This document shows positions 1-11,044 of a DNA stretch of 11,044 nt, one piece after another (the stretch's first letter is position 1; each line of letters opens with the position of its first letter). Position numbers and translations under genes: made by a program. Where the stretch lies: NCBI GenBank assembly GCA_900546875.1, contig URET01000038.1:1-11044 (forward strand), read 5' to 3'. The notes under the pieces are model-generated. The model did not search any database, was not told the origin of the DNA, and saw nothing but the letters and a program-made list of their open reading frames with translations. This DNA is from an uncultured Eubacteriales bacterium. GTDB lineage: Bacteria; Bacillota; Clostridia; Christensenellales; CAG-314.

Positions 1-250
1 GCGGCGTCGGGTGTTTTATATTCACAGCGTTGACGTACAATCTGAGGCTTCGGTATTTACGGCGCTGTTTGTATCTGTGGCATTGACATATATTCGCAAA
101 GTTGGTTTATATTAGCGGCGTCGACATATAAATTGCGGCGTCGGGTGTTTTATATTCACAGCGTTGACGTACAATCTGAGGCTTCGGTATTTACGGCGCT
201 GTTTGTATCTGTGGCATTGACATATATTCGCAAAGTTGGTTTATATTAGC
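1..250. repeat. 134-bp direct tandem repeat, about 1.9 copies (copy 1 = 1-134, copy 2 = 135-~250), cut off by the window start. Each unit contains ~45-bp sub-repeats carrying TTGAC(G/A)TA or TCGACATA cores next to TTTATATT.
   Basis: Bases 1-119 (gcggcgtcgggtgttttatattcacagcgttgacgtacaat...attagcggcgt) recur essentially base-for-base at 135-253. Within a unit, 'gttttatattcacagcgttgacgtacaat' and 'ggtttatattagcggcgtcgacatataaat' are about 70% identical. The array probably continues upstream of position 1. Confidence 0.9.
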
Positions 251-435
251 GGCGTTTTTTACGGTTTTTGTGCTGTCCTTGCCGTGTTTTACACTGCAGA
301 GGGCAGAAAAAGGGATTAGACAGACTAAATAAGTATATTGTATAAAATTCATAACACATGTTCAACAAAGACCGTCTGAAACAAAGTAAAATAAAAGAAT
401 ATGGTTTTGCTGTGAATGAAATTTCGCAAAAACAC

Positions 436-3281: not shown

Positions 3282-3403
3282 AAAATAAAACAGTATAAAA
3301 AAAACAGTATAAGAAAAAAAATATTGTGGAGAGTCTATGTTTATATGCTGTGATGTAAATAATACAGTAAGACATATCAAAAAAGGAAAGAAGGAGGAAA
3401 TCG

Positions 3404-4867
3404 ATGGTAGTAATAGGTTTTTTGCTCAGCGGAATAGTTTTTGAGCCGTTGCTGATAGCGCTTGTGATACTTGTAGTGGCGTTTCTTGTATTTCTTATTT
3501 CGAGATACCGTAAATGTCCGTCAGACAAAATACTTGTCATATACGGAAAGATAAAGGACAATAAGGACGGCACGCCGCGTTCGGCAAAGTGCATACACGG
3601 CGGAGCGTCATTGGTGTGGCCCTTTTTCCAAGGGTATCAGTACATGGATCTCACGCCCATATCGATCAGCGTCGACCTGAGAAACGCACTCAGCAGACAG
3701 AATATAAGAATTGACGTACCAAGTACTTTTACGGTAGGTATATCCACGGAGCAGGGAGTTATGCAGAATGCCGCCGAAAGGCTACTGGGACTTAAACTCA
3801 ATGAGATACAGGAGCTTGCAAAGGATATCATTTTCGGACAGCTTCGTCTTATTATAGCGACGATGGATATCGAGGAAATCAATACCGACAGAGATAAGTT
3901 CCTCGAAGCAGTGAGCAGAAACGTGGAAACAGAGCTCAAGAAGATAGGTCTCAGGCTCATAAACGTAAACGTTACCGATATAAACGACGTATCGGGCTAT
4001 ATAGACGCACTCGGAAAAGAGGCGGCGGCGAAAGCTATAAACGACGCGAAGAAGTCCGTGGCGGAGAAAAACAGAGACGGAAGCATAGGAGAAGCAAACG
4101 CTTTGATGGATCAGAGAATAAATGTTGCCGACGCCAATCAGAAAGCCATAAACGGCGAAAATGAGGCTATGGCGAAGATATCTCAGTCCAACGCCACGAG
4201 AAGGGAAGTAGAGGCGGAGTCATTAAGAAGGGCAACAACGGCGGAAAATATCGCAAAAGCCAAGGCTCTCGAAGATTCCTATACTGCTCAGATGGAAGCG
4301 GAAAAAGCGCGTGCAAGCAGAGAGAAAGCCACCTTGGAAGCCGATACGATAGTAAACGCGGAAATAGAAAAACGCAAGATGGAAATACAGGCGGAAGCCG
4401 AAGCCGAAAAGATGCGTCTTCACGCAAAGGGCGAAGCTGACGCAATATATGCCAAAATGCTGGCACAGGCAAAAGGTATCGAGGAAGTGCTCACCAAGCA
4501 GGCGGAAGGTTTTAAGAATATAGTCGAGGCGGCAGGCGGCGACGCAAACAGCGCTGTAAGACTTATGATCTCCGATAAGCTTGAGAATCTCGTGCGTATA
4601 CAGGTCGAAGCTGTAAAGAATATAAAGATCGACAAAGTCACGGTTTGGGACAGCGGAAAAGGCGAAAACGGAAACAGCTCAACAAGTAATTTTATAAGCT
4701 CGCTTTATAAATCCGTACCTCCGCTCAGCGAACTTTTCGACGCCGCAGGAATGAAACTGCCCGACTACCTCGGAACGGTAAAATCCCCCGAATCCGATCA
4801 GAATGCGGACAATAAAGACAGGCAGACAGCCGTGTCGGAAAACGTCCCCGTCAAGACCGAAGAATAG
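3404..4867 (+). CDS. floT: Flotillin-like SPFH/band-7 protein (FloT/YuaG type, 487 aa): N-terminal membrane hairpin, SPFH domain, Ala/Glu-rich coiled-coil flotillin repeats
   Basis: N-terminal hydrophobic hairpin MVVIGFLLSGIVFEPLLIALVILVVAFLVFLI, then an SPFH-like core (ISVDLRNALSRQNIRIDVPSTFTVGI...). A long EA-rich coiled-coil segment (EAEKARASREKATLEADTIVNAEIEKRKMEIQAEAEAEKMRLHAKGEADAIYAKMLAQAKG) is characteristic of bacterial flotillins. RBS 'gaaggagg' precedes the ATG at 3404. The gene symbol is given by analogy to the B. subtilis yuaF-floT pair. Confidence 0.88.
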   Translation: MVVIGFLLSGIVFEPLLIALVILVVAFLVFLISRYRKCPSDKILVIYGKIKDNKDGTPRSAKCIHGGASLVWPFFQGYQYMDLTPISISVDLRNALSRQNIRIDVPSTFTVGISTEQGVMQNAAERLLGLKLNEIQELAKDIIFGQLRLIIATMDIEEINTDRDKFLEAVSRNVETELKKIGLRLINVNVTDINDVSGYIDALGKEAAAKAINDAKKSVAEKNRDGSIGEANALMDQRINVADANQKAINGENEAMAKISQSNATRREVEAESLRRATTAENIAKAKALEDSYTAQMEAEKARASREKATLEADTIVNAEIEKRKMEIQAEAEAEKMRLHAKGEADAIYAKMLAQAKGIEEVLTKQAEGFKNIVEAAGGDANSAVRLMISDKLENLVRIQVEAVKNIKIDKVTVWDSGKGENGNSSTSNFISSLYKSVPPLSELFDAAGMKLPDYLGTVKSPESDQNADNKDRQTAVSENVPVKTEE

Positions 4868-4937: not shown

Positions 4938-5260
4938 ATACTCCGGAGAATATGATCGGATTTTTAGAGTTTCAAAGCGGTGCGATGTCGCTTTTTTAAG
5001 TGCAGCGCCCTTATCCGGATTTCAAATCAGGTTTTTTCTGCCAGTATCGGCTTATTATTTAATTAAAGCTCATACCGTAATTCAAGCTGATATCGCTAAA
5101 AAGTATTGAAATATAAAACACGATCGCCCGCGCATCGGAAACCCTGCCTTTTCAGAACGGTTTTTTTCACGGAAACAGGTCAGATGTATTGCATCAAGGC
5201 ATTTGTACTCATCAGGCAAGGCTGCAGGCAGTCGAAGGGAAATATTTTCGTGAAAAAAAT

Positions 5261-5400
5261 CGCCGGTAAAAAACGACGTAAATTCTATCCCGAAGAAATC
5301 TGCGGGTAAAAAACGACGTAAATGCTATCCCGAAGAAATCTGCGGGTAAAAAACGACGTAAATGCTATCCCGAAAATATCCGCCTGTAAAACCTGCGGCT
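5261..5400. repeat. Perfect head-to-tail tandem repeat, 3 x 40 bp (5265-5304, 5305-5344, 5345-5384) plus a degenerate partial fourth copy. Unit: ggtaaaaaacgacgtaaat(g/t)ctatcccgaagaaatctgcg.
   Basis: Copies 1 and 2 differ at one base, and copy 3 diverges only in its last ~10 nt. The period is exactly 40 bp, which is not a multiple of 3. The repeat lies in an ~830-bp ORF-free region between the convergent flotillin and glycosylase-like genes. Confidence 0.9.
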
Positions 5401-6765: not shown

Positions 6766-7360
6766 TCACCCTAAAACAATCTTTCCGTTGATAATGTCTG
6801 CAATCACTTCGACCAAAAAGGTATGCTCCCTTTCAAGAACTCTTGCAGCCAATATCTCCGGTGTATCGTTCTCCAATACCGGCACTGTAGTCTGAGCAAC
6901 GATCTCGCCGCTATCGTATTCGGCATTTACACGGTGAATCGTTACTCCGGTTTCTTTTTCTTTTGCTTCAATTACGGCAGTATGTACGTTCATCCCATAC
7001 ATTCCTTTGCCGCCGAACTTGGGCAGCAGAGCAGGATGGATGTTAAAGATTCTGTTGTTATACTTTTCCAAAACCGTGATATGTAACATTCTCATGTACC
7101 CAGCCAAGAAAATCATATCAACCTCGTGGGTAGCCAACACATCAAGGATTTCTTTAGCGAGAGCTTCTTCGCTTCCGAATTTTTTTTGCGCTCAAATGAT
7201 ATGCCGAAATATTCTCATTGTTGGCTCTCTGTAAAGCCATAGAATCAGCGTTATTGCTTATAACAGCCACAACCGTAGCATTGATCTTATTGCTTTTACA
7301 TCCGTCGATAATTGCTTGTAAATCACTACCTCCATGAGAGACAAAAACAGCTATATTCAT
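6766..7360 (-). pseudogene. purN: Phosphoribosylglycinamide formyltransferase (PurN-type, formyl_trans_N), interrupted by a +1 frameshift in a T8/A8 homopolymer (7180-7187). The track splits it into ORFs 7154-7366 and 6766-7140. Either a pseudogene or a sequencing indel.
   Basis: The N-terminal fragment MNIAVFVSHGGSDLQAIIDGCKSNKINATVVAVISNNADSMALQRANNENISAYHLSAKK matches the PurN N-terminus, and the downstream fragment ...LAGYMRMLHITVLEKYNNRIFNIHPALLPKFGG...VHTAVIEAKEKETGVTIHRVNAEYDSGEIVAQTTVPVLENDTPEILAARVLEREH carries the NxHP-LLP and Asp catalytic motifs. On the coding strand, removing one A from 'gcaAAAAAAAAttcgg' fuses the two into ...AYHLSAKKFGSEEALAKEILDVLATHEVDMIFLAGYMRML. The likely start is the second ATG (7358-7360), 8 nt after GGAGG. 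Confidence 0.8.
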
Positions 7361-7379
7361 ATTCATATCCTCCGTTGCT

Positions 7380-8069
7380 TTATAGTTCGGTCAAAACACC
7401 ACCGTTGAATCCGTATATGTTTTCTTTTTTGAATCCGTATAAAGACCAAGGCAAACTGATATGCGGTTCAAAAGTAAACGCTTCGACAGCGGACAGTTTT
7501 TCCGTGTTTCCTTTTTCGATGTAGATACGGTGTCTTTTATTCTTAACTATGGAATGACCCAAGTTTCCAAGAAAATCAAGGTTGACATACCCACGAGCTT
7601 TGATCTGATCGTTTATGTAGTAGAACAGCTCCTCAAAAGTTGTGTTCTCATTCACGAAACCAAGCATAGCTTCGTGCAGATAGGCTTCCATTTTGAGACC
7701 GTTTCGCCATTCATCATTCTGTATTTGCTCTATGTCTTTGACGATTTTTCCGTTTTCTACGATCAGCGTTCTGGCGTAGTCGCCCCAAATGCAGTTGTTT
7801 TGCGGGCTTAAATCTATTGTGATAATATCGTTTGACTCAATTATGTGGTCATCTGTTTTATACTCACGACCGGATACCGATACAGCGGTCTTTTCACCGG
7901 CGAAAACAAAAGCACCCACATCCCAATACCAAAAGGAAACCGCACCATGGGAAAGCATATATTCCTCACACAGTTGGCGAAGCTCAACAAGCGTCATGCC
8001 GGGCACAATAACTGTTGAAGCATATTCAATGGTGGCTCGGTTCAAATTTTGCATTTCGTGAATAGTCAT
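7380..8069 (-). CDS. M24-family (pita-bread fold, methionine-aminopeptidase-like) metallopeptidase, ~229 aa
   Basis: Alignable by eye to the MetAP core: PGMTLVELRQLCEEYMLSHGA corresponds to PGVSTGELDRICNDYIV. The two metal Asp are 11 residues apart in DIITIDLSPQNNCIWGDYARTL, followed by GHSIV (His), FTFEPHI (Glu) and a C-terminal Glu. The start is taken as ATG 8067-8069, preceded by RBS GGAG. Its ATG overlaps the TGA of the upstream Cys-rich frame (TGATG). Confidence 0.6.
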   Translation of the reverse strand: MTIHEMQNLNRATIEYASTVIVPGMTLVELRQLCEEYMLSHGAVSFWYWDVGAFVFAGEKTAVSVSGREYKTDDHIIESNDIITIDLSPQNNCIWGDYARTLIVENGKIVKDIEQIQNDEWRNGLKMEAYLHEAMLGFVNENTTFEELFYYINDQIKARGYVNLDFLGNLGHSIVKNKRHRIYIEKGNTEKLSAVEAFTFEPHISLPWSLYGFKKENIYGFNGGVLTEL

Positions 8070-8404
8070 CACTTATTCTCCAGTTGGTTGCACTTGTTTA
8101 CATACTTTGCTTGGTAATCCGAAATTTCTTTGCAAGGGTATTCCGAGCATTTAGCGCAAGCATCTGCACTTCGCTCAATGCAACACTTTTTGAATGGACA
8201 CTCTTTGCACAATTCAAATACGTTTTTTGATCTGCCACCGTCGCAGCAGGATTTTTCAAGAGGAATGTCAAGACCAAAGCTCTCTTTATAAAAACTCTGA
8301 GTCTGTCTGCGCAGGTCATCATTATTGGTTTGCGTTGCAATATAGGTAACACACTTTGAACAATCATGACCACAGTAACACGGCTTCCTGCCCGGTGATA
8401 GGGT
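8069..8404 (-). CDS. Cys-rich small protein frame (DUF3795-like: CYCGHDCSKC ... CKECPFKKCC ... CAKCSEYPC) with no canonical start codon; a possible pseudogene or mis-sequenced gene. It is in a different frame from the track's ORF 8098-8373.
   Basis: The stop-to-stop open frame (111 codons) translates to TLSPGRKPCYCGHDCSKCVTYIATQTNNDDLRRQTQSFYKESFGLDIPLEKSCCDGGRSKNVFELCKECPFKKCCIERSADACAKCSEYPCKEISDYQAKYVNKCNQLENK*. Its TGA (8069-8071) overlaps the ATG of the M24 gene, the composition is protein-like and the Cys spacing is conserved-looking, but there is no ATG/GTG anywhere in the frame (one in-frame TTG, without an RBS). A TAA lies 8 codons before the first Cys. Confidence 0.35.
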   Translation of the reverse strand, partial: TLSPGRKPCYCGHDCSKCVTYIATQTNNDDLRRQTQSFYKESFGLDIPLEKSCCDGGRSKNVFELCKECPFKKCCIERSADACAKCSEYPCKEISDYQAKYVNKCNQLENK

Positions 8405-9298: not shown

Positions 9299-10489
9299 TT
9301 ATCCTATGATGGCAAGGGCGGCGTAACCCGTTCCGATCAGCACAGCCAGAAACCCGAAATTTATCAGCAGGAAAATACCGATATATTTTTTTATGTTTTC
9401 AGGCTGTACGGCGTTGAAGGAACGTAGAGTTATCAGACTTGCAAGAGACGCTATGGGAGTTCCGAGTCCTCCGATATTCACGGCGATAAGCAGACCGGCG
9501 TAGTCCTGAGTGAACTTTGAAAGCAAAACGGCGGAAGGCACGTTGGAAATAAGCTGACAAGAAAGTACGCTGAAAAGGAGCGCGTCTTCACTGATGAGCT
9601 TGCTGAAAAAATCTCTTACCGCGTCTATGCGAGCCATGTTGCCCGAGAAAATAAAAAATGCACAGAATGTGAGCAGGAGAGAGTAGTCTACTCTTAGGAG
9701 GGACTTGTAATCGAATACGATGAGCGATAGGGTTACGGCGATCAATCCCCAGTAGTAATCGAACACCCGGAAGACGATAAGTATCGAAAGCGCGAAAAGT
9801 ACCGAGTAAACGATCATGCGCCAGACGGCAGGACGTTTTTCGGGAGCGGATCTGAGTTCTATGGGAGTAGGTTTCACAAAAAGACATACCGAAAGAATAA
9901 GAACAAAAGCTACGGCAAAAGGAAGAGCCATAATCTTAAAGAATTCCGCAGCCGGGATACTGAAGAAAGAATAAAGATAAAGATTCTGAGGATTGCCGAA
10001 GGGGGTCAGCATGCCGCCGAGGTTGGCAGCCACATTCTGCATAACGAAAGTCAGGGCAGTCAGCTTACGTTCTCCGCACATGCTCAGGGCGAAAAAGCCG
10101 AGAGGAAGGAATGTGATAAGAGCCATATCGTTGGCCATTATCATAGAACCGAAATATGTAATGAAAACCAGCGCCAGAACGAGATTGCGTTTGGTTTTGA
10201 AGCGGCGTATTATGACGTTTGCAAGCCATTCGAAAAATTTGATGTTTTTGAAAGCCGCGACTACCGCAAGTGTACAGAAAAGACACGTAAGAGTTCCGAG
10301 GTCGAAATAACCTGCGTACTGATCGTCGAAGGGTACGAAAACGCACGTTACGGCAGCCGCAACTACTGCAATAAGAAGCACTATGTTATTTTTCAGTACC
10401 CCGATAAAAATAGCCTTAGTTATTCTTTTTTTCAGTGCGCCGTGCATGTGTTTGACGTTTTGGACCGGCGATTGTTCCTGTTCTTCCAT
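9299..10489 (-). CDS. Polytopic anion permease of the ArsB/NhaD (citrate-transporter-like, YbiR-type) superfamily, 396 aa. The start was moved from GTG 10570 to ATG 10489.
   Basis: About 10-12 hydrophobic helices and a TPFGNPQNLYL motif typical of ArsB/NhaD-type permeases. The GTG at 10570 would sit upstream of the predicted promoter -10, whereas ATG 10489 (MEEQEQSPV...) lies ~30 nt downstream of it with an AAGGGA RBS-like sequence. Confidence 0.75.
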   Translation of the reverse strand: MEEQEQSPVQNVKHMHGALKKRITKAIFIGVLKNNIVLLIAVVAAAVTCVFVPFDDQYAGYFDLGTLTCLFCTLAVVAAFKNIKFFEWLANVIIRRFKTKRNLVLALVFITYFGSMIMANDMALITFLPLGFFALSMCGERKLTALTFVMQNVAANLGGMLTPFGNPQNLYLYSFFSIPAAEFFKIMALPFAVAFVLILSVCLFVKPTPIELRSAPEKRPAVWRMIVYSVLFALSILIVFRVFDYYWGLIAVTLSLIVFDYKSLLRVDYSLLLTFCAFFIFSGNMARIDAVRDFFSKLISEDALLFSVLSCQLISNVPSAVLLSKFTQDYAGLLIAVNIGGLGTPIASLASLITLRSFNAVQPENIKKYIGIFLLINFGFLAVLIGTGYAALAIIG

Positions 10490-10520
10490 AAAATTATCCC
10501 TTTGATGATTTAACTGATAA

Positions 10521-10549
10521 AGTATAACTCCCCTGATCGCATCCGTCAA
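10521..10549 (-). promoter_or_regulatory. Sigma-A-type promoter of the minus-strand operon: -35 TTGACG (complement of 10544-10549), 17-bp spacer, -10 TATACT (complement of 10521-10526)
   Basis: The minus strand reads 'ccggaagTTGACGgatgcgatcaggggagtTATACTttatcag'. Spacing is exactly 17. It is the only promoter-like element upstream of seven co-oriented, tightly spaced genes. Confidence 0.55.
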
Positions 10550-10744
10550 CTTCCGGAAGGGCGCCCTCACGCTTTCCTGCAGGGTTTTCGGCTTTTTTTC
10601 AGGATACTAAAAGACTTAAAACTTACTTACGGAAAACCACCGGAAAATCTGCCCGCTTTCATTGGGGAACCGAAAGCGTCTGCAGACGTTTCTTGAGCGG
10701 AAACAGTGCCGTCAGGAAGAGGAAACTGTTTTCCGTGCTTCAAA

Positions 10745-11044
10745 CACGTGCCTTGTCTTCCCGGGGCCGCAAACGTGTCTCGCTTTTCCGGGCTTCGTAA
10801 GCGTGCCTTGTCTTCCCGGCTTCGTAAGCGTGTCTCGCTTTTCCGGGCTTCGTAGCGTGCCTTGTCTTCCCGGGCTCCGCAAGCGTGTCTCGTTTTCCCG
10901 GGCTTCGCAAACGTGCCTCGCTTTTCCGGGCTTCGTAAACGTGTTTCGCTTTTTCGGGCTCCGTAAACGTGTCTCGCTTTCCCGAATTACGTAGGCAGGT
11001 CTCGTTTTCCCGGGCTTCGCAAACGTGTTTCGCTTTTCCGGGCT
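10745..11044. repeat. Tandem array of at least 11 units of a 27-28-bp repeat (consensus ~cgtgtctcgcttttccgggcttcgtaag, alternating with a variant cgtgccttgtcttcccggcttcgtaag), running off the right edge of the window
   Basis: The 'cgtg' landmark recurs at 10747, 10774, 10802, 10829, 10856, 10884, 10912, 10940, 10968, (10996 variant) and 11024, giving a period of 27-28 bp. Most units contain the hairpin AAGCG-tgtct-CGCTT followed by TT(T)TCC. There are no unique spacers, so this is not CRISPR. Confidence 0.9.

Follow-up and report, generated by a model that had tools for sequence, protein, structure and literature searches.

The head-to-tail array of 28-bp units that closes the stretch of DNA analysed here (11,044 nt, hereafter the window) is a genuine VNTR, or minisatellite: it shows every defining feature tested, since its units follow one another head to tail, its copy number varies between strains, and whole units are gained and lost. 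Taking all lines of evidence together, we consider it probable that the array is a lineage-specific minisatellite of 10 to 36 degenerate units, confined to a single locus, which forms a passive 3' untranslated region of an SDR oxidoreductase gene and has no sequence-specific role in its own right. As a strain-typing marker it is of an ordinary kind, if unusually long. With nine alleles in 13 samples, it offers a highly discriminating single-locus means of tracking strains of an uncultured Clostridia species of the human gut.

Extent, units and alleles of the array

The array proper, as delimited by wrap-around unit segmentation, covers positions 10751 to 11044 on the minus strand, which is the sense strand of the neighbouring genes, and holds about 10.5 units in the window according to TRF, unit segmentation and mapping to a longer contig. 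The unit consensus on this gene-sense strand is CACGTTTACGGAGCCCGGGAAAGCGAGA. In the window, TRF reports a contiguous array devoid of spacers, with a period of 28 (10747/10774 to 11044, 9.8 copies, 77% matches, score 290). A second, independent repeat finder places the array in the same register, and a 21-nt IUPAC pattern derived from the unit occurs five times in the window and not once in 200 shuffles. At the promoter-proximal edge lies a degenerate partial unit, CACGTGTTTGAAGCACGGAAAACAG, at positions 10726 to 10750 (minus strand); its sequence does not vary among the 17 contigs that span the array, and it served as the exact right-flank anchor for the extraction of alleles. The contiguous 28-bp array noted at the window edge in the preliminary description is therefore confirmed. 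Its estimate of at least 11 units in the window was slightly generous, as there are about 10.5 plus the degenerate partial one.

The array was also said to run off the window, and this proved correct: a 50-kb contig (L021), which matches the window in reverse complement without a single mismatch over 6,746 nt, continues the array for 179 nt past the window edge, so that the whole array measures 473 bp, or 16.9 (about 17) units. It starts 1 nt after the TGA stop codon of the SDR gene.

The units are far from uniform. Among 231 of them, 60 types are found, and inter-unit identity is 72 to 78% (TRF matches, in the window and in complete loci). In this set, ten of the 28 unit positions are all but invariant (C1, G4, T7, C9, G10, C16, A20, A21, C24 and A26), and about ten others show transitions at a ratio close to 50/50; between distinct units, 211 transitions are counted versus 36 transversions. 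So marked a difference between positions that are fixed and positions that vary freely is not explained by a purely neutral view, and the invariant positions could reflect constraint, for instance a protein-binding motif, instead of neutrality. Within the main unit subfamily, most pairs of polymorphic sites show every one of the four possible allele combinations, a sign that the units have long been reshuffled or have mutated recurrently, and a few distinct subfamilies, such as CCTGCCTACGTAATTC..., underlie the strongest mutual information between positions. The composition of the array is biased as well: its sense strand contains 32% A, 31% G, 26% C and 11% T, as compared to 25/21/25/28% in the flanking coding sequences. 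Such a strong depletion of T on the sense strand is another trait that a purely neutral view leaves unexplained.

TRF detects, besides the 28-bp period, an overlapping higher-order period of 55 bp (10729 to 10971, 82% matches). On complete loci it again finds a period of 28, with 10 to 37 copies, and in other alleles super-periods of 56, 84 or 112 bp, those of 56 and 112 bp being as frequent as that of 84 bp. The 55- to 56-bp alternation previously described does exist in the window, but it is merely a local higher-order pattern and does not represent an ancestral unit.

Copy number was compared on 17 metagenome contigs that cross the array, of which 13 are gap-free. These 13 contigs carry nine alleles, from 279 to 1003 bp and from 10 to 36 units (a 3.6-fold spread between strains), giving an allele diversity index of 0.92, while any two contigs are at least 99.7% identical in the SDR-side flank (last 717 nt). 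The suggestions that the array may vary between strains, and that it may be useful for typing, are thus both borne out. Encoded as series of unit types, related alleles prove to differ by single blocks of whole units: one deletion of 196 bp separates L001 from L004, one of 614 bp separates L001 from L013, and one of 56 bp separates L005 from L003, the alleles being otherwise identical in each comparison. The breakpoints of these three indels share 29 to 67 nt of homology. This shows that the array gains and loses whole units by deletion or duplication between similar units, a turnover for which replication slippage or unequal homologous recombination would be the obvious mechanism, and which results in a locus that is hypervariable between strains with nearly identical flanks. 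All 17 array-crossing contigs have at least 10 units; that so many are kept in every strain despite this instability is not accounted for by a purely neutral view, as a neutral array might be lost in some.

Probable transcription of the locus and possible functions

On the gene strand (minus strand of the window), the same order is found in all loci: a strong sigma-70-like promoter, the SDR gene, 1 nt, the array, the partial unit, some 200 bp, a promoter, a permease gene and a GNAT acetyltransferase gene. The array therefore sits between two co-directional genes, with SDR on its upstream side, beyond the window edge, and the permease on its downstream side, and it fills the gap from the SDR stop codon to the promoter region of the permease gene. 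The latter, first gene downstream of the array, is of the CitMHS / ArsB-NhaD type (Pfam PF03600, E = 1.2e-26) and spans 9299 to 10489 on the minus strand, encoding 396 aa from an ATG at 10489; a GTG at 10570 is an unlikely start, because it lies upstream of the predicted promoter. This sigma-70-like promoter of the permease operon, found by promoter scan at 10521 to 10549 (minus strand), consists of TTGACG, a 17-nt spacer and TATACT (10/12 matches). Its -35 box, at 10544 to 10549, is about 200 bp from the array, downstream in the direction of transcription. The earlier estimate of this distance was accurate, but the term 'divergent' applied to the array was misleading, given its position between two genes of the same strand. 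The exact permease protein is present on 23 contigs, and the protein occurs in human-gut metagenomes on dozens of contigs overall.

The question arises as to whether the array is transcribed. From the SDR stop codon to the array, the consensus scan finds no terminator-like site. Reading on from this stop codon, the first structure that resembles a terminator is an interrupted hairpin at 10642 to 10691 (minus strand), of -21.5 kcal/mol and followed by UUUUCC, revealed by folding (z = -1.74) and the core palindrome of which is also reported by the repeat finder; it escapes the consensus terminator scan because its loop is 9 nt long. We consider this hairpin as a candidate end of an SDR-plus-array transcript. 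Given the strong SDR promoter upstream, no terminator before the array and the first terminator-like hairpin after it, the array is most likely co-transcribed with SDR in a passive manner, forming in the SDR mRNA a long 3' UTR that is rich in purines, poor in T and weakly structured, and it is unlikely to have any sequence-specific role in its own right.

Other scenarios give the array an active role. In the first, it would act as a functional RNA platform: the SDR mRNA would present GGA, or Shine-Dalgarno-like GGAG, in 17 to 36 purine-rich, unstructured units, and recruit, as a multivalent sponge or scaffold, 30S subunits or an RNA-binding protein, in the manner of CsrB/RsmZ. GGA is indeed found at unit positions 16 to 21 in 89% of units, with a second GGA in 34% and GGAG in 32%, on a T-poor and weakly structured sense strand that no terminator separates from the SDR promoter and gene; the array is kept in 17 of 17 crossing contigs, and several unit positions are invariant. 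However, GGA is no better conserved than many other positions. Moreover, CsrB/RsmZ sponge RNAs expose GGA in the hairpin loops of a discrete sRNA endowed with its own promoter and terminator, whereas the GGA of the array does not lie in hairpin loops and the array has neither promoter nor terminator of its own. Rfam gives no match up to E = 1 over the array, either in the window or in the 34-unit locus L002, no related array was found in other species, and a 3.6-fold variation in copy number fits poorly with a dosage-sensitive sponge. We therefore regard such a role as unlikely. We would be equally reluctant to assume that repeats arise by a Borg-like process specific to this lineage, with the array as its oldest and largest product, kept in every strain for its function as a multivalent platform (sponge or decoy, RNA or DNA) linking SDR and permease expression.

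Alternatively, the array may bind a protein at the DNA level, each unit offering a site of the form C..G..T.CG.....C...AA..C.A, and act as a decoy that titrates a regulator, as a nucleoid-organising element, or as a roadblock or insulator between the SDR and permease genes. The sharp alternation of invariant and free positions within the unit is in line with this proposal, as are the predominance of transitions in unit variation (211 versus 36 transversions) and the location of the array between two promoters; by simple arithmetic, three units (84 bp) would also correspond to eight helical turns. On the other hand, the unit lacks clear dyad symmetry, and copy number is unconstrained between 10 and 36. 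No gene for a DNA-binding protein is a constant neighbour; genes of the WYL, recombinase and S24 types occur near the array only in some strains. A PWM scan of 16.6 kb found no unit-like site outside the array, the two flanking promoters included, and therefore no regulon or operator to titrate. As to the regulatory binding array proposed in the preliminary description, we found nothing that would speak for regulation, and we hold protein binding at the DNA level to be rather improbable. The array would be more interesting if it did bind a protein or act as an RNA platform, but none of our findings requires either. Both proposals retain a low probability on account of the invariant positions, the depletion of T and the retention of at least 10 units, and neither is positively supported.

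Inspection by eye suggested unit-like fragments near the permease promoter, which led us to consider the array as a decoy for a local regulator; their PWM scores do not exceed background, and this candidate was rejected.

Assembly, hairpins, reading frames and dispersal

We return to the minisatellite and to the simpler explanations that could be opposed to it. A short repeat may be expanded or collapsed by short-read assemblers, so that both the array and its variation would be artefacts. The window and at least nine other contigs do break inside the array, and four scaffolds have N-gaps there. In addition, L001 and the shortest allele (L013, 10 units) are separated by a deletion whose breakpoints share 67 nt of homology, an event that an assembler working with a small k could produce; L013 is the sole allele that could plausibly be a collapse. 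Against this, 13 gap-free contigs from different studies and assemblers span the array, and identical alleles recur in three independent samples or sources each, that of 893 bp in L001, L006 and L022, and that of 755 bp in L005, L024 and L025. The longest exact repeat inside any allele is 35 to 91 nt, below the k of 119 to 127 implied by contig names (k119_ and k127_), and the degeneracy of the units (60 types among 231) makes each path through the array unique. With recurrent identical alleles, clean indels and internal repeats shorter than k, an assembly artefact, which the preliminary description had considered as a possible objection, is very unlikely.

The same description proposed that most copies carry a 5-bp stem, AAGCG/CGCTT, with a T-run, and gave an insulator or terminator stack as one option; the array would then be a stack of small intrinsic terminators or of REP-like stabilising hairpins, each unit stopping or stabilising transcripts. 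Some units do carry AAGCG-N5-CGCTT followed by TTTCC, on the plus strand of the window, and with G-U pairs counted, five pairs are possible in the sense RNA at 56% of unit junctions. But the stem is far from general: AAGCG-N5-CGCTT occurs once in the window and CGCTT-N13-AAGCG once within the array, and in 221 units from nine alleles the complete set of five Watson-Crick pairs is found across just 11% of unit junctions, with a 5-nt loop, and within 22% of units, with a 13-nt loop. The one variable stem pair shows no covariation between a unit and the next, and even the opposite of compensation, G facing T in 98 cases and A facing C in 66, versus 16 G-C and 13 A-T. Likewise, mutual information between all pairs of positions, within and between units, reflects unit subfamilies and not pairing.

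Folding, which had been suggested as a check for hairpins, gives for the whole array an energy no better than that of dinucleotide shuffles (z = -1.66 on the sense strand, +0.99 on the antisense strand). Terminator-like sites are also scarce: in the part of the array contained in the window there are none on either strand, as compared to 1.5 expected from shuffles, and the 34-unit array of L002 has a single weak one, antisense, the whole scanned region having three versus 5.5 expected. Finally, stem and T-run stand in this order on one strand only, which is antisense to both flanking genes and offers no gene that could be terminated there. Nor is the unit dispersed, in contrast to REP/BIME elements. 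Interpretation of the array as a stack of terminators or hairpins is largely refuted, and we see hardly any chance for it.

A protein-coding repeat has even less to recommend it. Three units (84 bp) would encode a 28-residue repeat, either in a disordered, charged protein or in a C-terminal extension of SDR, and the sense strand indeed has few stop codons, with open stretches of up to 228 codons, ORFs of 140 to 244 aa proposed by gene callers in some contigs, and an 84-bp super-period detected by TRF in some alleles. However, the scarcity of stops is due to the T content of 11%, the period of 28 is not divisible by 3, and the 84-bp super-period is no commoner than those of 56 or 112 bp. Indels of 56 and 196 bp between alleles shift the reading frame; the called ORFs agree neither in frame nor in length, and L004 and L005 have none. 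The antisense ORF that spans the array has no match in Pfam, and a HMMER search of the sense ORF against 1.84 billion representatives returned four marginal matches, to unrelated repeat ORFs, and no real homologue. The coding interpretation is largely refuted and scarcely credible, and the ORF drawn across the array in the window had been rightly dismissed as an artefact.

The minisatellite appears to be unique to its locus. Searching the unit IUPAC pattern in 185,579 GTDB species-representative genomes revealed no array, and two single chance matches in high-GC genomes. The pattern has no match in viral contigs, and in JGI metagenome contigs it is found at this locus only, apart from one chance match. 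Among 36 fetched loci the unit 21-mer is present inside the array only, bar single chance matches in three unrelated loci (L011, L012 and L014), and a distant blastn of the full L021 array against plasmids and phages gave no match. As far as these data reach, that is, some 40 kb of chromosome plus scans of collections that hold few contigs of the species, the array is a single-locus element and not a member of a dispersed family of the REP, BIME, MIRU or MITE kind, a possibility that had been raised for REP-like elements.

The relatives examined do not share the array either. Of the nearest SDR homologues, 74 to 76% identical, three proteins were examined at five loci and lie in other gene contexts with no array, and in a sister species, the PepF of which is 78% identical, the whole SDR-array-permease segment is absent. 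PepF identity drops from 100% to 78% and then to about 62%, in 'Candidatus Fimimonas gallinarum' and 'Corallococcus sp. CAG:1435'. NCBI files these two under Myxococcaceae, which we take to be a historical misplacement of gut Clostridia MAGs.

Two other candidates were discarded. A CRISPR array is ruled out, as previously concluded, by degenerate units that abut without spacers, and no Cas family appears in the Pfam lists of the genes called within about 10 kb on both sides. Plasmid iterons or a sopC-like centromere array are ruled out too: no Rep, ParA or ParB family is found among the neighbouring genes, neither plasmids nor phages give a match, and the region is chromosomal, since recA lies about 20 kb from the array.

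Known repeat systems and neighbouring arrays

The closest parallel is with the VNTR or minisatellite loci of bacteria used in MLVA typing, as in Yersinia, Bacillus anthracis, Brucella and Xanthomonas (VNTRDB, PMC1781188; PMC1513380). The array shares with them a head-to-tail arrangement, a unit of tens of bp, a single locus with conserved flanks, and gain and loss of whole units; it differs by more degenerate units (72 to 78% identity, 60 types) and by its host, an uncultured gut commensal that has no typing scheme. Typical MLVA loci are also much shorter than this array, which reaches 36 units and about 1 kb.

MIRUs are dispersed over some 40 loci and have units of 40 to 100 bp with small ORFs that couple the flanking genes. 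They are reportedly (in an account attributed to Supply and co-workers, 1997) tandem repeats located between co-directional genes, in one orientation relative to transcription; they begin beside the stop codon of the upstream gene and vary in copy number. The array resembles MIRU-VNTRs in its intergenic position between co-directional genes, next to the upstream stop, in its single orientation and in its polymorphic copy number, but it has a 28-bp unit, a single locus and no consistent ORF.

A third comparison is with the tandem repeats of Borgs, extrachromosomal elements of Methanoperedens, where units are perfect, free of SNPs and recently formed (PMC9879509). Like the array, Borg repeats are intergenic, have a unit length not divisible by 3, vary within populations and are unique in sequence at each locus; the gene strand is enriched in A and depleted in T, a partial unit flanks the repeats, these start at the end of an ORF, and several arrays may occupy a short stretch (PMC9879509). 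The array differs by its old, degenerate units and by its location, a bacterial chromosome with recA nearby and not an archaeal extrachromosomal element.

Resemblance to the remaining systems is more superficial. The REP/BIME elements of enterobacteria are likewise short, intergenic, sometimes clustered, placed between co-transcribed genes and partly self-complementary, but REPs are strong palindromes with hundreds of dispersed copies, whereas the array has a weak, mostly imperfect stem and one locus. As for CRISPR, 28 bp falls within the range of its repeat lengths, and both are direct and regular; the array lacks spacers and cas genes within about 10 kb, and its units are degenerate rather than near-identical.

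The neighbourhood of the array is structurally plastic. A BspA-type LRR surface protein of 550 to 762 aa adjoins the SDR gene, an M24-peptidase/purN module is present or absent depending on the contig, and a recombinase module is found near the array only in some strains. It is also rich in repeats: the same 22 kb contain four to five further intergenic arrays, the copy number of which varies between samples. Their units are of 145 bp (3.4 copies), 134 bp (window positions 1 to 255, 1.8 to 3.2 copies), 40 bp (window positions 5254 to 5391, 2.4 to 4.0 copies), 19 bp (2.2 to 3.2 copies) and 15 bp (2.6 copies), and in the 134-, 145- and 40-bp arrays they are 94 to 100% identical. We considered the 134-bp repeat as a tandem promoter, and dropped this idea when the scan gave no plus-strand promoter in positions 1 to 255.

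In the sister species, none of the further intergenic arrays was seen. Altogether, five arrays are present per 21.8 kb, versus three per 80 kb in control loci (unrelated and sister-species). This density points to a genome prone to tandem duplication and speaks for a mutational origin of the array, and so unusual a concentration of variable intergenic arrays in one chromosome stretch is a hint that the lineage itself is prone to tandem repeats. The presence of tandem arrays at both ends of the window explains why assemblies of the species break there.

Intergenic tandem arrays

A second tandem repeat, of 134 bp, occupies the end of the window opposite the 28-bp array: it lies upstream of pepF (1-255) and comprises 1.9 copies that are 100% identical. 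Tandem arrays are thus found at both ends of the window, and the positions of the contig breaks are therefore probably explained. Elsewhere the 134-bp repeat is present in 1.8 (L007) and 3.2 copies (L033), and no such array was called in three other loci (L002, L004 and L036). A scan of the repeat at positions 1-255 detected nothing resembling a promoter on the plus strand.

Tandem arrays are also present inside the window. A 40-bp repeat (5254-5391; 3.0 to 3.5 copies, 89 to 96% matches) separates the convergent flotillin and AlkZ-like genes, and its copy number varies from 2.4 to 4.0 between samples. An A-rich intergenic array of 14/15-bp units, with 2.6 copies, is found at 3283-3318. Locus L033, which comes from the same species and extends leftwards past position 1 of the window, contains two further intergenic arrays in that outer part, one of 145 bp (1926-2424; 3.4 copies, 96 to 99% matches) and one of 19 bp (7445-7486; 2.2 to 3.2 copies). 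Altogether, the species of the window has 5 tandem arrays per 21.8 kb, whereas the control loci, which are unrelated or come from a sister species, have 3 per 80 kb; in the sister species, none was detected in about 15 kb. Tandem duplication may occur more readily than usual in the lineage of the window.

The M24 peptidase and purN-like genes

Within the operon-like row of minus-strand genes, an M24 peptidase gene and a purN-like formyltransferase gene form a two-gene module (6766-8072). Many strains lack this module (among them L001, L003-L006, L022, L024, L025 and L035), which therefore corresponds to an accessory insertion or a deletion. The purN-like gene (6766-7380, minus strand) is itself variable: in the window's strain it is frameshifted at about position 7187, owing to a homopolymer that is A8 here but A7 where the gene is intact. 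Several assemblies made independently share the split form, of 68 + 116 amino acids, and others have an unbroken gene product of 197 to 199 amino acids. The frameshift is a real polymorphism, possibly reflecting either a phase-variable tract or a pseudogene.

Genes beyond the 28-bp array

Past the right end of the window, the oxidoreductase (SDR) gene beside the 28-bp array is followed by a divergent gene for a BspA-type leucine-rich-repeat (LRR) surface protein (L002 361-2649, L001 3306-5018). The protein varies in length with the strain, from 550 to 762 amino acids, and its gene contains a 24/48-bp coding tandem repeat. A direct Pfam scan matched it to PF13306 (E = 1e-183); the precomputed Pfam annotation had no match.

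Beyond the LRR gene, three loci have a large serine recombinase and a WYL regulator (L001 312-3260, L006 89-3799, L022 1-534), with only the recombinase visible in L022 and an additional S24 LexA-like peptidase in L006. This suggests that an integrated element adjoins the locus. Neither gene was found in L021 or in L023-L026, for which the flanks retrieved were shorter, and L002, L003 and L005 stop too near the LRR gene for the presence of these genes to be judged. An insertion sequence (DDE_Tnp_1) lies between the flotillin and AlkZ-like genes in L034.

Minor annotation points

Directly upstream of the flotillin gene, a weak Rfam match to osmY RNA (3347-3406, plus strand; E = 0.083) is most likely due to chance: its 23.3 bits fall short of the family's gathering score, 46.9. 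The longest open reading frame of the permease (423 amino acids, minus strand) extends through 10490-10570 to a GTG start, and the predicted -35/-10 promoter (10521-10549) lies downstream of this GTG. Translation more likely begins at the ATG at 10489 (396 amino acids); public gene calls use both forms.
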